From positions 1 through 50,368 of the forward strand of contig CAZHLU010000001.1 of NCBI GenBank assembly GCA_964533435.1: DNA of 50,368 bases. Direction: 5' to 3'. This document shows positions 1-4,390 of this stretch, in pieces (position 1 is the first letter of the stretch; each line of letters begins with the position of its first letter). The DNA is from an uncultured Gammaproteobacteria bacterium. Lineage in GTDB: Bacteria; Patescibacteriota; Patescibacteriia; UBA1558; GWA2-36-10. The position numbers were made by a program, and so were the translations under genes. The notes under the pieces were generated by a model. That model had not been told where the DNA came from. It saw only the letters and a program-made list of their open reading frames with translations, and searched no databases.

Positions 1-55
1 CCGGTTAATATTTTGTTTTTAGGCATGTTTGTTATTTAGTATTTTTATTTATTTC

Positions 56-188
56 ACCTAACAGATGAGCGTATGTGAAGATGCTTTCGCGGTGACCGTG
101 ATGTAATTTTAACATCACGGGTACAAGAAGGCAATTTACAGAAAACCAGTTCTTTTAAGATGGTTTTCTCGCATGCGTGGTGTTGCGT
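56..188. repeat. attC-like imperfect palindrome A
   Basis: Outer boxes ACCTAAC (56-62) and GTTGCGT (182-188) fit RYYYAAC/GTTRRRY. After a short unpaired spacer there is an 8-bp inner stem 70-77/170-177 with two G-T wobbles on the + strand. Internal hairpins at 95-104/112-122 and 141-148/161-168. Shares the left motif TAACAG-N3-5-AGCGTAT and right motif GGTGTTG with the other copies. Confidence 0.6.
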
Positions 189-226
189 GATGTTGTGCTT
201 CCCCTTACTTTAGGGGATTTTTGGTA

Positions 227-255
227 TTGACAAAATAGTTAAAATATGATATTAT
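227..255 (+). promoter_or_regulatory. sigma70-type promoter of G+C-rich module 1
   Basis: TTGACA (227-232), 17-nt spacer, TATTAT (250-255), TG at 247-248. AAAGGA SD-like element before the ATG at 301. Confidence 0.6.
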
Positions 256-300
256 CATATTGCCATAATGGTGTGGCGAGTACACTGAAAGGATTGGGCC

Positions 301-792
301 ATGTTGTGCATAGGACTATTCGGCACTTGCGGCAAGAGCAAGTGGCGCGCTCCCTTCATACAGCGTTACCAGTCGGAAGACATCGCCTTCTTCAACCCCC
401 AGGTCGATGACTGGAAGCCCGAATGTGCCGTCAAGGAGGCCAAGCACCTCGCCAACGACACGGTGATTCTCTTCCCCATCACCAGCGAGACCTACGCTAC
501 GGGTTCCCTGGCCGAGACTGGTTTCAGCATCCTCAATGCGATCCGTCTGGACGATCGGCGCGACTTCGTCATCCTGATCGAGCAGAATCTTGACGAAGAA
601 CTGGTCGACGAGACGGCGCGCAAGGAGAGTCTCCGGGCTCGCGCACTGGTCAAGGAGCATCTCAAGAAGCTCCGTCTGTCCAACCTATACGTCGTCGAGT
701 GCCTCGAGGAGATGCTCGAGGTCAGTATCACGCTCTACCGAGCGGCCGAGATGCGCGAACCGTTGCGCAAGTTCAATCCGCACGCCGAGTAG
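301..792 (+). CDS. nucleoside 2-deoxyribosyltransferase-like protein (G+C-rich cassette ORF)
   Basis: 163-aa ORF. IGLFGTCGKSKW...FNPQ...D...LFPI...TGSLAETGFS pattern resembles the Nuc_deoxyrib_tr / Nuc_deoxyri_tr2 fold families (from memory). G+C clearly above the flanks. Has its own promoter and terminator. Confidence 0.6.
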   Translation: MLCIGLFGTCGKSKWRAPFIQRYQSEDIAFFNPQVDDWKPECAVKEAKHLANDTVILFPITSETYATGSLAETGFSILNAIRLDDRRDFVILIEQNLDEELVDETARKESLRARALVKEHLKKLRLSNLYVVECLEEMLEVSITLYRAAEMREPLRKFNPHAE

Positions 793-828
793 TCGGCGCC
801 AGACCTGAGCAAGTCTCAAGAACTGCTT

Positions 829-862
829 GCCCGCCGCATCACGCGACGGGCTTTTCTTTTTT
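829..862 (+). terminator. rho-independent terminator of module 1
   Basis: GCCCG-c-CGC / GCG-a-CGGGC stem (829-851) followed by a T-run (852-862). The loop carries CATCACGCGAC, complementary to 182-192. Confidence 0.6.
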
Positions 863-932
863 CTCAAAAAATTACAAAACAAAAAACAATTTCTAAAAGA
901 TTGTTTATTTAATGAATAGAAAATTCGATTTT

Positions 933-1006
933 ATATAACAGCCCAGCGTATCTGAAATCCCGGGCGACCATTAACTTAATAGGCGAGGGATTTGGGCAAG
1001 CGGACT
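933..1006. repeat. attC-like element B (short/truncated copy)
   Basis: Left end ATATAACAGCCCAGCGTATCTGAAATCCC is near-identical to the left end of element D. 7-bp stem 955-961/987-993. No GGTGTTG right end. Confidence 0.45.
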
Positions 1007-1009
1007 AAA

Positions 1010-1339
1010 TTATTTTAATACAATGATAGAGATTCTCCTAATAATTGTCACTGCTGCACCCCAAGCCATTGGCGCCCATAATGGTAATCCAAAAAATGTT
1101 GGATTGGTATATTGCCAAGCGCCTTGGTATATCGTCAAGCTCTCTCCTATTGGTCCAAGTATAAAAGCAGTAAAATAATAGGACACATCTTCTTTATCGT
1201 GCCATTTTAAAAATATAAGAACTGTGATTACTATAAAAGCTATTGTTAACCAAGTATTATTATGGTAAAGGTAGGTGATAGCCACTACACAAACTGCAAA
1301 TAGTATAACTGCTAATAATAATTCTTTTATTTTATTCAT
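1010..1339 (-). CDS. small integral membrane protein, unknown function
   Basis: 109-aa ORF with 3-4 hydrophobic helices and AT-rich native-like composition. No family recognised. Confidence 0.55.
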   Translation of the reverse strand: MNKIKELLLAVILFAVCVVAITYLYHNNTWLTIAFIVITVLIFLKWHDKEDVSYYFTAFILGPIGESLTIYQGAWQYTNPTFFGLPLWAPMAWGAAVTIIRRISIIVLK

Positions 1340-1424
1340 AACTGTATTATGGAATATTTTTATTTATTCCGGACCTGTCCGCCTTTGGCGTAAACCAAAT
1401 ACGCGGTGCGAGATGTTTATAAAA

Positions 1425-1712
1425 TTATTGTTTAATTGGCTCGCACCATCCGAAGGAACTTGCGCACTCCAGGCCATTTCCTTGAAATCCATCGGGGCAG
1501 CCATCATCAGGAATAAGTTTATAGTTTCCTCGTTTCATTCTTTCTACTGAGTTTATACAACAGTCGGTCTTTTTTTCACATTGATCAGCTAATTTTTGAT
1601 AGTAATCAATAGTGATTAATTTTGCATCTTGATTATTTGAGTTAAAATAGGCGATTAATCCTATTAGTAGAATAACTGTAATTATTCCAGTTGTTAATTT
1701 TATTTTTTTCAT
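1425..1712 (-). CDS. small secreted/anchored Cys-rich protein
   Basis: 95-aa ORF. N-terminal hydrophobic signal/anchor (KLTTGIITVILLIGLIAYF) and 7 Cys in the C-terminal half. Confidence 0.5.
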   Translation of the reverse strand: MKKIKLTTGIITVILLIGLIAYFNSNNQDAKLITIDYYQKLADQCEKKTDCCINSVERMKRGNYKLIPDDGCPDGFQGNGLECASSFGWCEPIKQ

Positions 1713-1741
1713 ATGGTATTTTAATAGTTTTAATAAATTTT

Positions 1742-1950
1742 GTCTAACAGGCCAGCGTATGCTACGTTACGAGCGAGCTTTGCGGTAAAATATTTGCGGA
1801 GCAAACCGCAAAGGCGAACGAGTAATGTAGGTCTTAGCTTACACCTATCATAGGTTAAAATTAAAAGTGTCTAAGCTAATTTAAGCACTTTTAACTATAA
1901 ATTTCAAATGTAGCATTGGTGTAAGCTAAGTCGCATACGCGGTGTTGTGG
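1742..1950. repeat. attC-like imperfect palindrome C
   Basis: GTCTAAC (1742-1748) / GTTGTGG (1944-1950). Perfect 8-bp inner stem GCGTATGC/GCATACGC (1755-1762/1933-1940). Internal hairpins at 1778-1785/1806-1813 and a 15-bp stem at 1831-1845/1918-1932. Confidence 0.6.
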
Positions 1951-1968
1951 GATGTTTTGGCTTATTAC

Positions 1969-1997
1969 TTGACAAATATCTTATTATATATTATATT
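1969..1997 (+). promoter_or_regulatory. sigma70-type promoter of G+C-rich module 2
   Basis: TTGACA (1969-1974), 17 nt, TATATT (1992-1997). AAGGAGG lies 6 nt before the ATG at 2040. Confidence 0.6.
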
Positions 1998-2039
1998 AGC
2001 GATGGCAATACCGCCAAAAACTCTTTAAGGAGGTAGCCA

Positions 2040-2225
2040 ATGCTAATAGTCTTTTATGTGAAGTTTTCCGACATCGATCGCCTGCGAAAAGGTGAGGCGG
2101 TCCCTGCGATGGAAAGTCAAACAAACGATTTCTATCGCATAGAGGCCGAAGTCGAAGAAGTGAAGATCTACCAAGATCCCAACGTCAGCTCGCGTCGGTT
2201 GGTGAAGAAGCTCCATCAACGCTAG
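2040..2225 (+). CDS. hypothetical 61-aa protein (G+C-rich cassette ORF)
   Basis: ORF directly preceded by a strong SD (AAGGAGG) and a consensus promoter, and followed by a hairpin terminator. No family recognised. Confidence 0.5.
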   Translation: MLIVFYVKFSDIDRLRKGEAVPAMESQTNDFYRIEAEVEEVKIYQDPNVSSRRLVKKLHQR

Positions 2226-2264
2226 TCCGACGAGTGCGGTCGCTGACTGACAGCTCCCCACAAC

Positions 2265-2311
2265 ACCGCCTTATCGAAAGCCGCACGGCTTCGGTCGGGC
2301 GGTTTTCATTT
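2265..2311 (+). terminator. hairpin terminator of module 2 (possibly also a mini attC-like site)
   Basis: ACCGCC...GGCGGT long hairpin (2265-2303) followed by TTTTCATTTT. Immediately preceded by CCCACAACACCG (2257-2268). Confidence 0.5.
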
Positions 2312-2332
2312 TATATGCCTGCCCAAACCAAA

Positions 2333-2468
2333 ATTTAACAGGACAGCGTATCTGAAGTTCCGAAGCGAGTGGCGTGGTAAAATTGCGCGGCTTGCCAGCC
2401 GTAACTTTAGCGAAGGTTGGAGCGCACCACGCAAACGAGCGAGGGATGTAGAGGAGTGAGCGTTAAAG
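2333..2468. repeat. attC-like element D (left end plus conserved internal hairpin)
   Basis: ATTTAAC (2333-2339), then AGGACAGCGTATCTG. Stem 2372-2378/2426-2432 flanked by AGCGAG / GGTAAAAT / AACGAG...GATGTAG blocks shared with element C. TTTAAC/GTTAAA (2334-2339/2462-2467) are complementary. Confidence 0.55.
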
Positions 2469-2486
2469 AATAAAATTATTTAAAAA

Positions 2487-2990
2487 TTAAAGTTTTTTTA
2501 TTCTTTTTAATATAAACCAAGAAAAATGATTGCCATATCTTTGATGTAATGTTTTTAATTTCCAGTCATTACCAGTTATTATTTTTCTACAATATTTACT
2601 GCCACACTCACATTTTAGCTTATAGGGGTAAGTAGTGATAGTGGCATAATCAACAGTAATTTCCTCACCCTTTTTAATATTTTTTAATGCCACAAAAGTT
2701 ATTTCTCCATCTGGTCCAGCGTTTGGTTGGCAAGAGTGGTTAAAACTAACAACTAAGTTTTTGATTTCATCTTTTCTTATTGGCGCAAGAAAGAATTTAT
2801 CAGAAATTTGTACCTCAAAATCTCCGACTTCTTTGTGACAACGCATTGCTTCTTTAAAATTTACAATATGCCCCATTTTTATAAAGACCACCTCACCTTT
2901 TTTAATATTAGTTTTAGCAAATAATCCTTTTCCGCCGATTTTGCTTGTTTTAACTATTGTCTTTGGTGAGCGGTAACATTTAATTTTCAT
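2487..2990 (-). CDS. SET-domain protein (putative lysine methyltransferase)
   Basis: 167 aa. Has FNHSCQPN, EEITVDY and a post-SET CxCxxxxC (CECGSKYC), the classic SET signatures. Confidence 0.8.
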   Translation of the reverse strand: MKIKCYRSPKTIVKTSKIGGKGLFAKTNIKKGEVVFIKMGHIVNFKEAMRCHKEVGDFEVQISDKFFLAPIRKDEIKNLVVSFNHSCQPNAGPDGEITFVALKNIKKGEEITVDYATITTYPYKLKCECGSKYCRKIITGNDWKLKTLHQRYGNHFSWFILKRIKKL

Positions 2991-3014
2991 ATATTTTTAA
3001 ATAATTTTATTCTA

Positions 3015-3055
3015 GCTCGCTCCTCGGATATCCGGTGTTGGGCGAAACGTGGGTT
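3015..3055. repeat. attC-like right end (GGATATCC-GGT-GTTGGGC) plus left arm of the module 3 inverted repeat
   Basis: GCTCGCTCCTC (3015-3025) is inverted relative to GAGGAGTGAGC (2451-2461). GATATCC (3027-3033) can pair with GCGTATC (2346-2352). GTTGGGC (3037-3043) fits GTTRRRY. Positions 3035-3055 are complementary to 3428-3448. Confidence 0.5.
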
Positions 3056-3094
3056 AAATTTTTTATTTTATTAAAATATTAGTTTTTATAGTTA

Positions 3095-3123
3095 TTGACA
3101 GGTATTGTTATGTGTTGTATTAT
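3095..3123 (+). promoter_or_regulatory. sigma70-type promoter of G+C-rich module 3
   Basis: TTGACA (3095-3100), 17 nt, TATTAT (3118-3123). AAGGAGG precedes the ATG at 3154. Confidence 0.6.
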
Positions 3124-3153
3124 ATCTAGTTCCCCAAAAGGAGGTGTGTCAGC

Positions 3154-3351
3154 ATGTCACTGAAACGTCAGTTCATTCGAGGTCAGGTTGTGGTTTTCCT
3201 TCTCAGTCTGCTCGTGTGGTATCTCTTTACTCCGAGGCCGATCTTTTCAACACAAGGGGTGACGATTTTTGTGGTCAGTCTCGCAATTCTGGAGGCGATG
3301 TTTCTCATTCTGCGGGCTGATGAGCAGAGGTCAAGGACACAACCCAAATAG
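3154..3351 (+). CDS. small two-TM membrane protein (G+C-rich cassette ORF)
   Basis: 65 aa with two hydrophobic helices (VVVFLLSLLVWYLF, VTIFVVSLAILEAMFLIL) and a charged tail. Strong SD, own promoter and terminator. Confidence 0.55.
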   Translation: MSLKRQFIRGQVVVFLLSLLVWYLFTPRPIFSTQGVTIFVVSLAILEAMFLILRADEQRSRTQPK

Positions 3352-3376
3352 CATCTTCACGATGCACGATTCTCTG

Positions 3377-3415
3377 AAGGCGGTGCTGGTTAGTTCCAGT
3401 GTCGCCTTTTCTATT
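3377..3415 (+). terminator. rho-independent terminator of module 3
   Basis: AAGGCGGTGCTGG / CCAGTGTCGCCTT stem (3377-3408) followed by TTTTCTATTT. Confidence 0.6.
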
Positions 3416-3439
3416 TGTTTAAAAATGAACCCACGTTTC

Positions 3440-3493
3440 GCCTAACACTGTGTTGACGCACCTGTTGACATCATAGCCAAAATTAGCTAAAAA
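3440..3493. promoter_or_regulatory. candidate attI-like junction and recombinase promoter
   Basis: GCCTAAC (3440-3446; GTTAGGC on the minus strand), then two direct TGTTGAC repeats (3451-3457, 3463-3469). The second repeat overlaps TTGACA (3465-3470), followed by 17 nt and TAAAAA (3488-3493), upstream of the ATG at 3524. Confidence 0.4.
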
Positions 3494-3523
3494 GTAAATA
3501 ATAAACATTAATCACAAACTATT

Positions 3524-4390
3524 ATGAAAAGCGATTTTAAGGCCTTAAGAAAGCCTCAGTTTTTGGTCAATAACCATCCTTTAGACAGTCTAGCTCAAGA
3601 GCTTATAATTAGGGGATTTTCTCGGCGGACTATCCAGAGCTATTTATCTCACAATCAGCGATTTTTGGACTTTAGTGGCAAATCAGCCAGAGCCGTCGAT
3701 AGTCAGGATGTCAAAAATTATTTGCTTTATCTTAAGAGTCAAAATTATACCAACACCTCTCTCAATCAAGTTATTTCAGCTCTTAAGTTTTATTACGGAC
3801 AGATTCTAAAAAGGAAGCTGTTTTTTAGTATTCGGCGGCCTAAGAAAGAAAAGTTTTTACCAACTATTTTGACAAAATCTGAAATTATAAAAATAATAAA
3901 TTGTTCACATAACCTAAAACACAAATTACTTTTGTCTTTAATGTATGGTTCGGGCCTAAGAGTGTCAGAAGTGATTAAAATAAAAATAAATCATTTGGAT
4001 TTAGGTTCTAAAAGCTTATTAGTCAAAGATGCTAAAGGGCAAAAAGATCGTTTTACTTTATTAAGTGCTATTAGTATCAAATTATTAAATCTTTATTTAC
4101 CAAAATTGTCGAGTGAGCAAAAATATTTATTTTCTGGGCAAAATGGTATGTCTCATCTTAGTCAACGTAGCGCACAAAAAATATTTGAAATTGCTTTGCA
4201 AGAATCAAGTATAAAAAAAGATGCTACCTGCCATAGTTTGCGCCATAGTTTTGCTACTCACTTATTGGAGAGTGGAGTTGATATTCGTTATATCCAAAAA
4301 TTATTAGGCCACCAAAATATCAAAACTACAGAAATTTATACGCATGTAGCTAGAAGTTTTTTTAATAATATCAAAAGCCCACTAGACTAA
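3524..4390 (+). CDS. tyrosine recombinase, IntI/Xer-related (integron-integrase-like but without the IntI-specific insertion)
   Basis: 288 aa. Catalytic signature GLRVSE, KGQKDR, HSLRHSFATHLL, LLGHQN, EIYTHV. ALKFYYGQIL and the C-terminal IKSPLD resemble IntI1 ALLFFYGKVL and VRSPLD (from memory). The segment between DRFTLL and KYLF is short. Confidence 0.85.
   Translation: MKSDFKALRKPQFLVNNHPLDSLAQELIIRGFSRRTIQSYLSHNQRFLDFSGKSARAVDSQDVKNYLLYLKSQNYTNTSLNQVISALKFYYGQILKRKLFFSIRRPKKEKFLPTILTKSEIIKIINCSHNLKHKLLLSLMYGSGLRVSEVIKIKINHLDLGSKSLLVKDAKGQKDRFTLLSAISIKLLNLYLPKLSSEQKYLFSGQNGMSHLSQRSAQKIFEIALQESSIKKDATCHSLRHSFATHLLESGVDIRYIQKLLGHQNIKTTEIYTHVARSFFNNIKSPLD

Follow-up and report, generated by a model that had tools for sequence, protein, structure and literature searches.

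Among the closest described systems are the integrons (IntI, attI and attC), including sedentary chromosomal ones such as the Vibrio VCR arrays and the archaeal integrons (PMC9668308), in which, as here, the recombinase gene diverges from the cassette array. XerA enzymes, for their part, resolve chromosome dimers at dif (PMC8138268), and no association of these enzymes with a cassette array or a structured repeat family was found in the searchable literature. In a 50,368-nucleotide stretch of a Patescibacteria chromosome (the window), a family of structured repeats was found beside a XerA-type recombinase gene. We read the repeats, with a probability of about two in three, as cassette recombination sites, analogues of attC, of an integron-like platform. 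This platform is integron-like in its working while its parts differ; the resemblance is functional, and it is not a canonical member of the integrons. No description of such a cassette system was found in the literature searched.

The four-cassette array occupies positions 44 to 3447 and is minus-oriented, running leftwards from an attI-like junction (TAAC, 3443-3446) located 77 bp upstream of the divergent tyrosine recombinase gene (3524-4390). The exact motifs were confined to bases 1 to 3447. Thus, TAACAGNNNAGCGTAT occurred exactly four times in the 50 kb (59, 936, 1745, and 2336), always on the plus strand, and right ends reading ATAYSCGGTGTTG were located at 173, 1935, and 3028. At each cassette boundary, the left junction (YAAC-AGNNNA-L box) has a right junction (L box'-GGT-GTT) as its pairing partner, and a conserved two-helix module, Pa/Pb, sits behind the left junction. 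A cassette was defined, from the indels between strains described below, as the DNA from one left-junction AAC to the next AAC, which places cassettes 1 to 4 at 2339-3445, 1748-2338, 939-1747, and 62-938. Cassette 4 (minus orientation, AA/C to AA/C, left-junction spacing of 877) contains site A plus a GC-rich outer cargo.

All the coordinates of a preliminary description of four repeat copies, here sites A to D, matched the sequence (site features are on the plus strand). Sites A and C are compact. Site A (44-201; covariance-model match at 47-148, 69 bits), which has no inner cargo, begins with the R arm and TAAC (44-62), the spacer AGATGA (63-68), and L'' (69-77), followed by Pa (78-84/131-137) and Pb (96-103/113-120), with a deviant −10-like motif, TGATGTAAT, at 99-107; its right side comprises L' (170-178), GGT (179-181), and GTT plus flank (182-201). 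It showed 87% identity with positions 3891-4024 of a related locus, L016. Site C (1733-1962; match at 1733-1839, 93.6 bits) has TAAC at 1745-1748, the spacer at 1749-1754, L'' at 1755-1763, Pa at 1764-1770/1822-1828, Pb at 1778-1786/1805-1813 with the motif CGGTAAAAT at 1783-1791, a GCGGAGC mini-hairpin at 1796-1802, and a third helix, P3, at 1833-1845/1918-1930, ending in L' (1932-1940), GGT (1941-1943), and GTT plus flank (1944-1962). It was ∼80 to 90% identical to copies in L014 (2416-2625 and 4893-5104), L021 (5452-5659), and L042. The inner boxes pair as had been described, perfectly for 1755-1762 (GCGTATGC) and 1933-1940 (GCATACGC) and with two T·G wobbles for 70-77/170-177, and so do the hairpin stems CTTTGCGG (1778-1785) and CCGCAAAG (1806-1813) of site C and GCGTGGT (2372-2378) and ACCACGC (2426-2432) of site D.

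Site D (2324-3058; match at 2329-2460, 63.4 bits) contains inner cargo. Its left side carries TAAC (2336-2339), L'' (2346-2354), Pa (2355-2361/2443-2449), and Pb (2372-2378/2426-2432) with the motif TGGTAAAAT at 2375-2383; P3 (2451-2487/2993-3024) encloses a SET-domain open reading frame (ORF) on the minus strand (2487-2990), and L' (3025-3033), GGT (3034-3036), and GTT plus flank (3037-3058) complete the right side. The positions given earlier for this copy stood, but not its unity, since the left L box (GCGTATCTG) mismatches the right L box (GGATATCC), making site D a chimera that joins two types of site. Site B (924-1410; 47.5 bits) had been called shorter. In fact, it extends from its left module (924-1004, a subtype without the −10-like motif, with TAAC at 936-939 and L'' at 946-954) to a decayed right junction at 1396-1410, CAAATACGC-GGT-GCG, in which GCG replaces GTT, and it encloses an inner cargo ORF on the minus strand (1010-1339). 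Its orthologs in L016 (2605-3094) and L157 (1119-1608) keep an intact right end.

The repeat family goes well past what chance would produce. When the left module was modeled by covariance, the search yielded 130 matches in related Patescibacteria loci and only four in the window (47-148, 924-1004, 1733-1839, and 2329-2460), whereas 132 kb of unrelated viral contigs gave no match. Among 123 distinct copies, Pa/Pb pairing was intact in 97.1% of cells and compensatory changes on both sides were observed in 15 of 15 pairs; the covariation values observed were reached by none of 500 shuffles. The selection on structure that had been proposed from the covariation of the window copies was thus borne out. 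The L boxes fell into at least 7 sequence types and kept their complementarity, true partners pairing at 8.81 of 9 positions versus 7.77 for permuted ones (maximum of 8.11 in 1,000 permutations). In the R stem, the 8 distal nt behaved differently: 6.3 of 8 positions were paired when the ends of a single outer module were compared, as expected if the crossover lies in AAC, whereas the two flanks of one site paired at the random level (2.35 of 8). The outer stem earlier assigned to a single copy therefore requires amendment, its distal part pairing across the neighboring cargo segment rather than between the copy's own flanks. Empty sites were 124 to 214 nt long.

The window recombinase (288 amino acids [aa], plus strand) is of the XerA type and IntI related. 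It scored 227 bits against NCBIfam NF040815 (cutoff, 220), aligned end to end with Pyrococcus abyssi XerA (PDB 4a8e; E value, 2e-42), and showed the catalytic R..K..HxxR..H..Y residues in the alignment. It does not contain the ∼40-aa IntI-specific insertion, having 28 residues where IntI4 has 69. In IntI, the IntI-specific domain contacts extrahelical bases. The enzyme could primarily be the cell's Xer/dif recombinase. The attI-like junction (3443-3470, plus strand) comprises TAAC (3443-3446), the constant ACTGTGTTGACGCACC, and TTGACA (3465-3470), which is likely the −35 element of the recombinase gene. The attI region was conserved, and in 9 of 9 evaluable loci (orthologous ones plus the window) sites were found only upstream of the recombinase gene and only on its strand.

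The cargo is accessory and diverse, including SET, nucleoside 2-deoxyribosyltransferase-like, GrpB, and Fic proteins, an Eco47II restriction enzyme with a C5 methylase, and a Z1/ResIII ATPase. A cargo ORF was enclosed by 36 of 54 sites, the L boxes then lying 0.4 to >1 kb apart. As for the outer cargo, cassette 4 carries a 163-aa nucleoside 2-deoxyribosyltransferase-like ORF (301-792, plus strand) that is antisense to the array and has its own promoter (227-255) and terminator. Cassette 3 contains a 95-aa ORF in the sense orientation (1425-1712, minus strand), and cassette 2 a GC-rich 61-aa ORF (2040-2225, plus strand) with its own promoter (1969-1997). The outer module of cassette 1 (3037-3446, plus strand) encodes a GC-rich 65-aa membrane protein (3154-3351, plus strand) between a promoter (3095-3123) and a terminator (3376-3409), and is flanked by a 28-nt inverted repeat (3035-3062/3421-3448).

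Leftward of base 3447, metagenome variants departed from the window, and contigs with a 100% identical recombinase diverged from it exactly at TAACA (3443-3447). Two related loci, L004 and L158, contained an extra cassette at the attI-like junction. Similarly, L099 and L046 differed by a 1,803-bp unit, consisting of an inner plus an outer module, between two TAAC junctions, with flanks 100% identical over 122 and 1,322 nt. The strain-level indels (window versus L004 and L046 versus L099) were bounded exactly by the left-junction AAC. Between species, homologous inner modules kept the same outer neighbor in 0 of ∼12 evaluable cases, and so exchange also takes place either in the vicinity of right junctions (or at them) or through homologous recombination between the 30-nt junction sequences, which are conserved.

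The plus strand had been proposed as the folding strand, and both fold energies and wobble pairs agreed. Of 105 left modules, 99 folded more stably as the plus strand under DNA parameters and 100 under RNA parameters, as did sites A, C, and D; thus, the suggested two-strand folding favored it with both parameter sets. G·T pairs exceeded A·C pairs in Pa/Pb (39 versus 6) and in the outer stems (104 versus 16), one G·T pair being nearly invariant (113 of 117). The plus strand is therefore the bottom strand relative to the sense cargo ORFs, as in an integron. The preliminary description had left two readings of this strand, an attC bottom strand or a plus-strand RNA, of which the former is now favored. 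Structured RNAs, acting as small RNAs or antisense regulators of cassette genes and transcribed from the TGnTAwAAT motif as an extended −10 element, would suit the near-invariance of that motif and its fit to the sigma-70 consensus, the G·U wobbles, the wider gap in stability between strands with RNA parameters, and the terminator-like P3 that ends some compact copies, such as L021 9165-9288. We consider them improbable. This sole promoter-like motif lies inside Pb, and a transcript begun there would miss the 5' strands of helices that all covary, namely, Pb, Pa, and the L and R stems; besides, the upstream cargo units are closed by terminators. The predicted apical loops were DNA-type C(GNA)G mini-hairpins (triloops in 40 of 70, versus 2 GNRA tetraloops) rather than GNRA or UNCG tetraloops, and the hyperstability of C(GNA)G in DNA is much reduced in RNA (PMC13037366). 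Furthermore, the pairing spans whole cargo genes, up to >1 kb, and becomes complete only from one cassette end to the other, the indels at AAC would be left unexplained, and Rfam gave no match.

Somewhat less remote, although still unlikely, is an array of pdif-like modules, in which unfolded, double-stranded core sites of the Xer type, inverted in alternation, would allow each inner or outer segment to be swapped independently by double-strand Xer recombination. The XerA-type enzyme, the strict L-R-L-R alternation of sites, the matching half-sites at both ends of each segment, and the reassortment of inner and outer modules between species are all in agreement with it, and the left junction can be read as a core site, TTCGCCTAAC-AGACAAG-CGTATGCGAA, whose arms match as inverted repeats at 7 of 10 positions. 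However, the spacer measured 6 nt at the left junction and 3 nt at the right one in 54 of 54 pairs, and right-junction centers 3 nt shorter are incompatible with equivalent double-stranded sites. Such a mechanism also leaves unexplained the strand-biased G·T wobbles, the fold asymmetry, and L boxes that vary while remaining complementary; the inner ORFs lay on the minus strand in 36 of 36 cases, and 3 of 3 strain-level events ended at left junctions or attI, with inner plus outer module as the unit. Most improbable of all, the outer segments would be nonautonomous, MITE-like transposable elements with 20- to 28-nt terminal inverted repeats (GTTGGGCGATGT.. / ..ATTTCGCCTAAC), inserted in a hairpin target of which the sites would be remnants. 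Terminal inverted repeats matching at 16 to 19 of 20 positions do occur in nearly every outer segment, as in the window at 3035-3062/3421-3448, but neither a transposase nor target-site duplications were present, each genome contained a single array in one orientation beside one recombinase, and the unit gained or lost was inner plus outer module, bounded by AAC, and not the repeat-bounded segment alone.

Under the cassette-site reading, the plus strand of each site would fold with the R stem (..YAAC/GTTR..) outermost, reaching ∼20 bp only when the two ends of the cassette itself are together, as in an excised circle. Beyond it, the predicted fold has an internal loop that is asymmetric (AAC arm, 6 nt; other arm, 3 nt), a 9-bp L stem, and a junction carrying Pa/Pb, with P3 closing either a whole cargo ORF or only a short loop. 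The R and L stems may form a pseudo core site to which the neighboring recombinase binds, cleaving the plus strand near AA/C, and exchange of the cleaved strand with attI or another site would insert or excise a cassette. With 0.4 to >1 kb between L boxes, folding should be slow unless long stretches are single stranded.

As regards known systems, the window protein passes the family cutoff for XerA and "Cand" Xer-related recombinases (NF040815; 4a8e; PMC8138268) and keeps their catalytic residues. The pdif modules of Acinetobacter plasmids (XerC/XerD sites) share alternating inverted sites, matching half-sites, and an implicated Xer-family enzyme. Here, in contrast, spacer length differs by 3 nt between the junction types, pairing covaries and is strand biased, the array lies in the chromosome with a polarity and is attached to a recombinase gene, and indels are two-segment units. 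The Pb hairpin, with its near-invariant TGnTAwAAT bulge and GNA mini-hairpins, resembles RNA-polymerase- or primase-dependent single-strand initiation signals (the M13 minus-strand origin, ssoA of rolling-circle plasmids, F Frpo, G4 and RSF1010 ssiA, and N4 vRNAP hairpin promoters): the T at −12 is paired, −11 to −7 of TAwAAT are single stranded, and GCGNAGC-type caps are common to both (PMC13037366). A role of this kind is putative; no −35 element is evident, and the hairpin belongs to a recombination site instead of the origin of a replicon. CTX-phi and other IMEX provide a precedent for a Xer-type enzyme (XerCD) that recombines a single-stranded DNA hairpin with a double-stranded chromosomal site, beside which arrays form; they are phage genomes at dif, whereas the present cassettes are 0.6 to 2 kb long without replication or morphogenesis genes.

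The likeness to integrons covers several features. Both have imperfect inverted-repeat sites with outer (R) and inner (L) boxes and a conserved AAC...GTT, an unpaired asymmetric spacer, a variable terminal structure, structure kept over sequence, and one favored folding strand. In both, the crossover, placed here by prediction, lies in AAC, so that the cassette start pairs with its own R'' box, new cassettes are found at the recombinase-proximal junction, promoterless and promoter-bearing cassettes coexist, and the cargo is diverse, accessory, and defense related. The parts differ, however: the recombinase is XerA-type by score and without the IntI-specific domain; the extra bases are three contiguous ones on the AAC arm, versus the T and G bases on the opposite arm in canonical attC; empty sites measure 124 to 214 nt, against 57 to 141 nt for attC; and the Pa/Pb module, a complete cargo ORF between the L boxes of most sites, an R stem of ∼20 bp, and a host in the Patescibacteria are features of the present system.

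The left motif TAACAGNNNAGCGTAT, on which the preliminary description had built a family of four repeat copies, occurred exactly at 59, 936, 1745 and 2336, always on the plus strand and nowhere else in the 50 kb, and right ends of the form ATAYSC-GGT-GTTG were found at 173, 1935 and 3028. Direct reading also confirmed that the proposed stems are complementary (1755-1762/1933-1940, 70-77/170-177, 1778-1785/1806-1813 and 2372-2378/2426-2432). Two long inverted repeats that had been seen only partly were recovered with a repeat finder: 2458-2487/2993-3022, which encloses the ORF at 2487-2990, and 3035-3062/3421-3448, which encloses the last GC-rich segment. Bases 1 to 3450 consist of AT-rich and GC-rich segments in alternation. 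The AT-rich segments carry minus-strand ORFs (1010-1339, 1425-1712 and 2487-2990, the last encoding a SET domain), and the GC-rich units carry plus-strand ORFs (301-792, NDT-like; 2040-2225; 3154-3351) with plus-strand sigma-70-like promoters (227-255, 1969-1997 and 3095-3123; 11 of 12 positions matched in each). Terminator-like hairpins follow the first and third GC-rich units, at 3376-3409 for the third and by sequence reading for the first. Counted from AAC to AAC, the cassettes span 62-938, 939-1747, 1748-2338 and 2339-3445, in agreement with the repeat spacings of 877, 809 and 591. Locus L001 shows galT, a terminator and an OmdA gene on the minus strand upstream of the window, and thus the array is bounded on both sides.

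The three GC-rich cargo units (189-932, 1951-2332 and 3044-3440) have a GC content of about 0.45 to 0.6, versus about 0.33 for the genome, and all point toward the recombinase gene (3524-4390, plus strand), in antisense to the array. Units of this class also occur in related arrays, where they often encode small membrane proteins and have flanks of the CATACAAC type, not of the CGCCTAAC type.

Each site has a left junction (YAAC-AGNNNA-L box) and a right junction (complementary L box-GGT-GTT) enclosing an inner segment. Alignment of 27 diverse left modules revealed two helices behind the L box: Pa, of 7 bp with one nearly invariant G.T pair, and Pb, a hairpin whose stem sequence varies. In this seed alignment 95.5% of the cells pair, with double changes in 92 cells versus 33 in shuffles, and slid controls gave 31 to 43% pairing. 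A covariance model derived from this seed recovered 130 copies in 396 kb of related loci, just the four known copies in the window and none in 132 kb of unrelated viral contigs. The covariation first claimed for two hairpins held across 123 distinct sequences, in which 97.1% of the cells pair, compensatory changes occur in 15 of 15 pairs and none of 500 shuffles equalled the observed value; since this alignment was fitted to the model its pairing is somewhat inflated, and the unfitted seed alignment agrees. A third helix, P3, covaries by eye (GCGGACT/AGTCCGC, GCGAGCT/AGCTCGC, GGAGCGAGC/GCTCGCTCC, AAAAACAGCC/GGCTGTTTTT); it closes a short loop or, as in D and some others, the inner ORF, and elsewhere (for example L014 480-1646) the ORF precedes an intact P3 hairpin. 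The family is real, non-random and structured. Its copies were rejected as remnants of a duplicated gene, being non-coding, flanked by unrelated genes and covarying.

Two sites of the window deserve separate description. Site D (2336-3039) is a chimera of two site types: its left part (L box GCGTATCTG, GAAGTTCC...) is of the type seen in the related loci L094 and L101, and its right part (GGGATGTAGAGGAG..., L box GGATATCC) of the type of L016 1167-1858 and of the extra cassette of L004; the two parts join near AACGAGCGAGG (2433-2443), and the Pb apex has an insert of 30 nt. In the right junction of site B (1396-1410), GCG replaces GTT, and L016 and L157 have intact orthologous sites, so that cassette 3 may have become immobile.

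The geometry of the junctions was analyzed in 54 distinct left/right pairs, in which left and right junctions alternate strictly. All 54 have the form YAAC...GTT, with AAC-N6-L box on the left arm versus L box-N3-GTT on the right arm, so that three extra nucleotides sit on the AAC arm in every pair. The 9-nt L boxes fall into at least seven sequence types and are still complementary (8.81 of 9 positions paired between true partners versus 7.77 between permuted partners). Eighteen inner segments are empty (124 to 214 nt), and the other 36 hold exactly one ORF, on the minus strand in 36 of 36. The outer segments, from a right junction to the next left one, always bear cargo and are bounded by inverted repeats of about 20 nt, the distal 8 nt of which are specific to the segment, with 6.3 of 8 positions paired across it versus 2.35 of 8, the random level, between the two flanks of one site. 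One outer module (L021 5648-7889) contains a complete restriction-modification pair, an Eco47II-type endonuclease and a C5 cytosine methylase with a MerR/HTH N-terminus, and thus a cassette can hold multi-gene defence systems.

As to the unit of mobility, homologous inner modules sit between unrelated outer modules when species are compared, with neighbours conserved on neither side, and mosaic breakpoints also fall inside sites. Mosaicism thus dominates the between-species comparison, which gives no position for the crossover; module linkage was treated as uninformative, and the placement of the crossover rests on strain-level indels. L046 and L099 have flanks 100% identical over 122 nt and 1322 nt, and the 1803 extra bases of L099 start right after one TAAC and end with the next. 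This extra unit comprises one inner module (L boxes GGATATCTG/CAGATATCC) and one outer module (flanks GTTGGACGCCGTTTGTCTTA / TAAGACAAATGGCGTCTAAC). All recent events seen, that is, this indel and the variants at the attI-like junction, are bounded by the left-junction AAC and none by the right junction. This is the integron pattern, in which crossover takes place within the R' box, a cassette consists of its cargo and a site, and the first cassette bases pair with the cassette's own R'' box. A shufflon-like inversion system was discarded given the uniform minus-strand orientation of the 36 inner ORFs.

The attI-like junction of the window is TAAC at 3443-3446. Metagenome contigs with an identical recombinase are the same as the window rightward from about 3443 and different to the left, the divergence point lying exactly left of TAACA (3443-3447). 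In L004 and L158, ..CGCCTAAC-A is followed by a new left junction, AGgctAGGATATCC, by a Pb hairpin whose stem has a third sequence (GCGGTGCTAT/ATAGCACCG) and by a minus-strand ORF; in L009 a Z1/ResIII ATPase gene, apparently defence-related, occupies the attI-adjacent position, and L010 and L011 have other cassettes there, ending in ..TTTCGCCTAAC. Variable cargo to the left of a constant recombinase-side sequence amounts to attI-like behaviour, and the region is kept in 10 orthologous loci. In several genomes (L009 1-1200; L014, L015, L016, L017 and L019) the junction reads TATC instead of TAAC, which may reflect a fixed first cassette or a native attI half-site. For a Pc promoter directed into the array, the one candidate, at 3498-3470 on the minus strand, is weak (9 of 12 positions matched). 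A second GTTGAC at attI was considered as a direct repeat of the site, but the -35 element of the recombinase promoter is the better reading of it.

The 288-aa recombinase scored 227.4 bits against the XerA model NF040815 (cut-off, 220), which covered residues 24 to 278, so that by sequence it classes as an XerA-type enzyme; against the integron-integrase model TIGR02249 it reached 210 bits (cut-off, 265), in two stretches. Against solved structures, its alignment to Pyrococcus abyssi XerA (4a8e) was collinear (E value, 1.9e-42), whereas that to Vibrio IntI4 (PDB 2a3v) fell into two blocks separated by 28 query residues (182-209) versus 69 in IntI4 (171-239). As judged from these alignments, it thus lacks the IntI-specific insertion around patch III; this additional domain is what defines IntI (PMC9668308). 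For the 'Cand' subgroup of Xer-related recombinases, the one role known is that of a presumed Xer substitute (PMC8138268). As regards a dif site at the replication terminus, on which XerA-type enzymes act, no sign change of GC skew was found at 3.4 kb within the window.

A scan of species-representative genomes yielded orthologs of the recombinase 76 to 90% identical in Patescibacteria MAGs, and a metagenome scan with the right-end pattern about 40 further array-bearing loci. In all nine evaluable loci (orthologs with at least 600 nt of upstream sequence, the window included), the sites lie upstream of the recombinase gene, on its strand and nowhere else. Many MAG contigs (L012, L015, L017, L018, L020, L022, L024 and L027) have one of their ends no more than about 250 nt upstream of this gene; short-read assembly thus fails systematically at these arrays, and MAGs probably contain too few of them. 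The title 'uncultured Gammaproteobacteria', borne by several of these Patescibacteria-like MAGs, looks like a labelling mistake. In L104 (700-1513), a recombinase only 52% identical to that of the window has model matches upstream on its strand, so the system may extend well outside the close clade. Around more distant homologs, of at most 49% identity, a pattern search found no sites (L023, L025, L026 and L030), and the model scan, which took in L023 and L025, gave no match. The pattern YTAACAGNNNAGCGTAT has 13 specified bases. In collections of mobile elements, the 17-base right-end pattern occurred in 15 viral contigs, none with a covariance-model match, so these occurrences are chance; nor was any similarity to site C found in plasmid and phage collections. 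The family has thus not been seen on known mobile replicons.

Folding of both strands bore out the preliminary claim of a plus-strand bias. The plus strand was the stabler one for sites A, C and D with both DNA and RNA parameters, in 99 (DNA) and 100 (RNA) of 105 left modules, and in 17 (DNA) and 19 (RNA) of 19 compact sites. Wobbles pointed the same way, G.T exceeding A.C by 39 to 6 in Pa and Pb (the invariant G.T pair excluded), with 104 versus 16 in the outer stems. It is thus the plus strand that has been selected to fold, and the earlier suggestion that it is the attC bottom strand of a minus-oriented array is supported, indirectly, by this fold bias and by the large excess of G.T over A.C.

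Whether this strand acts as DNA or as RNA was weighed on several grounds. CGNAG occurs at the Pb apex in 59 of 106 cases, and of 70 predicted apical loops 40 are C(GNA)G triloops and only 2 GNRA tetraloops. In DNA the GCGNAGC 'mini-hairpin DNA' motif has an extraordinary stability, far above that in RNA (PMC13037366; PMC3201870). These predicted apexes, the pairing around whole genes, an outer stem that is complete only between cassette ends, and the position of the sole promoter-like element within the fold itself all argue for a DNA rather than an RNA structure. The Rfam gathering scan of the window returned tRNAs only, and the E-value scan of bases 1 to 3600 only snR87, a yeast snoRNA (1972-2068; 27 bits; E value, 0.08), a match that covers the promoter and start of ORF 2040-2225 and is almost certainly chance.

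Alignment columns 57 to 65 of the left modules spell the extended -10 consensus TGnTAwAAT, with [T79/C26] G105 n T106 A106 [A60/T35] A106 A102 T108. Of 106 copies, 105 have the T at -12 paired; the bases from -11 to -7 always form a bulge or loop, and the GNA mini-hairpin follows. The motif is absent from 16 of 123 copies, window copy B included, and deviant in copy A (TGATGTAAT); the left modules without it have a short hairpin, CCATTAA..TTAATGG, in place of Pb (window 924-1004, L055, L083 and L140 5785). The Pb arrangement resembles single-strand origins that depend on RNA polymerase (the M13 minus-strand origin, ssoA and Frpo among them). Mini-hairpins also mark the complementary-strand origins of G4, St-1 and alpha3, the RSF1010 ssiA signal and the single-stranded promoters of N4 (PMC13037366). 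From this resemblance of bulge and mini-hairpin comes the tentative proposal, which we consider rather doubtful, that each site carries a single-strand initiation signal. Plainer alternatives are that Pb is an ordinary promoter for an antisense or plus-strand RNA, with which the consensus itself would agree, or that it presents a protein-binding bulge. A reading of TAAAAT as the U-tract of a minus-strand terminator (1812-1793) was not retained as the main one, since none of the bases T, A, A, A and T nor the upstream G varies.

The favoured and probable reading is that of an integron-like system. The plus strand would be the bottom strand of a minus-oriented array and would fold when single stranded, the R stem, the asymmetric bubble and the L stem together imitating a core site. 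The neighbouring recombinase, an Xer-type enzyme without the IntI domain, would then perform structure-specific recombination of single-stranded DNA, cleaving near AA|C and swapping one strand with attI or another site. An excised circle would have the junction ..ATTTCGCCTAA|CAGNNNA-L box, uniting both ends of one cassette. This recombination scheme is drawn by analogy with attC x attI recombination and with XerCD, which acts on folded CTX-phi DNA; the structure, strand bias, linkage and indels are what was observed. A bolder reading, to which we give a probability of about one in four, is that of an independently evolved system of this kind in which each site also carries such an initiation signal. 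In Pb, the paired -12 T and bulged -11 to -7 positions, like a promoter fork junction, and the GCGNAGC cap might bring RNA polymerase or primase to a plus strand that has been excised or exposed, and the recruited enzyme could prime the complementary strand or the replication that resolves a one-strand exchange. Each cassette would then amount to a miniature mobile unit of single-stranded DNA that has two cargo bays, inside and outside the hairpin.

If the integron-like reading is true, gene capture by way of folded single-stranded sites is not bound to the IntI lineage or to its extra domain, and the integron principle also operates in the candidate phyla radiation, whose tiny genomes are believed to gain genes by few routes. 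The sites provide a signature of sequence and structure, in the form of the covariance model, for finding hypervariable loci; these loci contain accessory genes, restriction-modification genes among them, and metagenome assemblies break at them just upstream of the recombinase gene. Since bulges lie on the other arm, cargo lies inside the hairpin, and a promoter-like bulge is combined with mini-hairpins, the architecture bears on how tyrosine recombinases read DNA structure and choose a strand, and it may also show how replication completes one-strand exchanges. Neither in Patescibacteria/CPR nor with XerA-type enzymes were integrons or cassette arrays found to be described in the literature, the coverage of which was incomplete; an earlier description may thus exist, and novelty is provisional.

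Among known systems, pdif modules share the alternating orientation and the Xer-type enzyme. Their equivalent double-stranded core sites (two 11-bp arms and a 6-bp centre) differ from the present junctions, the right ones being 3 nt shorter in every pair; the pdif model thus fails on site equivalence, and it also fails on the strand bias. Measured against the canonical integron (IntegronFinder; Messier and Roy; Ghaly 2022), the array has its attI-like junction next to the recombinase gene and diverges from that gene, and its sites are attC-like imperfect inverted repeats with AAC/GTT in which structure is conserved over sequence. The recombinase differs from IntI in lacking the specific domain. 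In the canonical attC geometry, which MacDonald in 2006 and Bouvier in 2009 are said to have described, the extrahelical bases reportedly lie on the '' arm opposite the cleaved AAC, whereas here they lie on the AAC arm itself. Canonical attC sites are about 57 to 141 nt long, whereas here the empty sites measure 124 to 214 nt and 36 of 54 enclose an ORF. The likeness to the integron lies in the way the array works.
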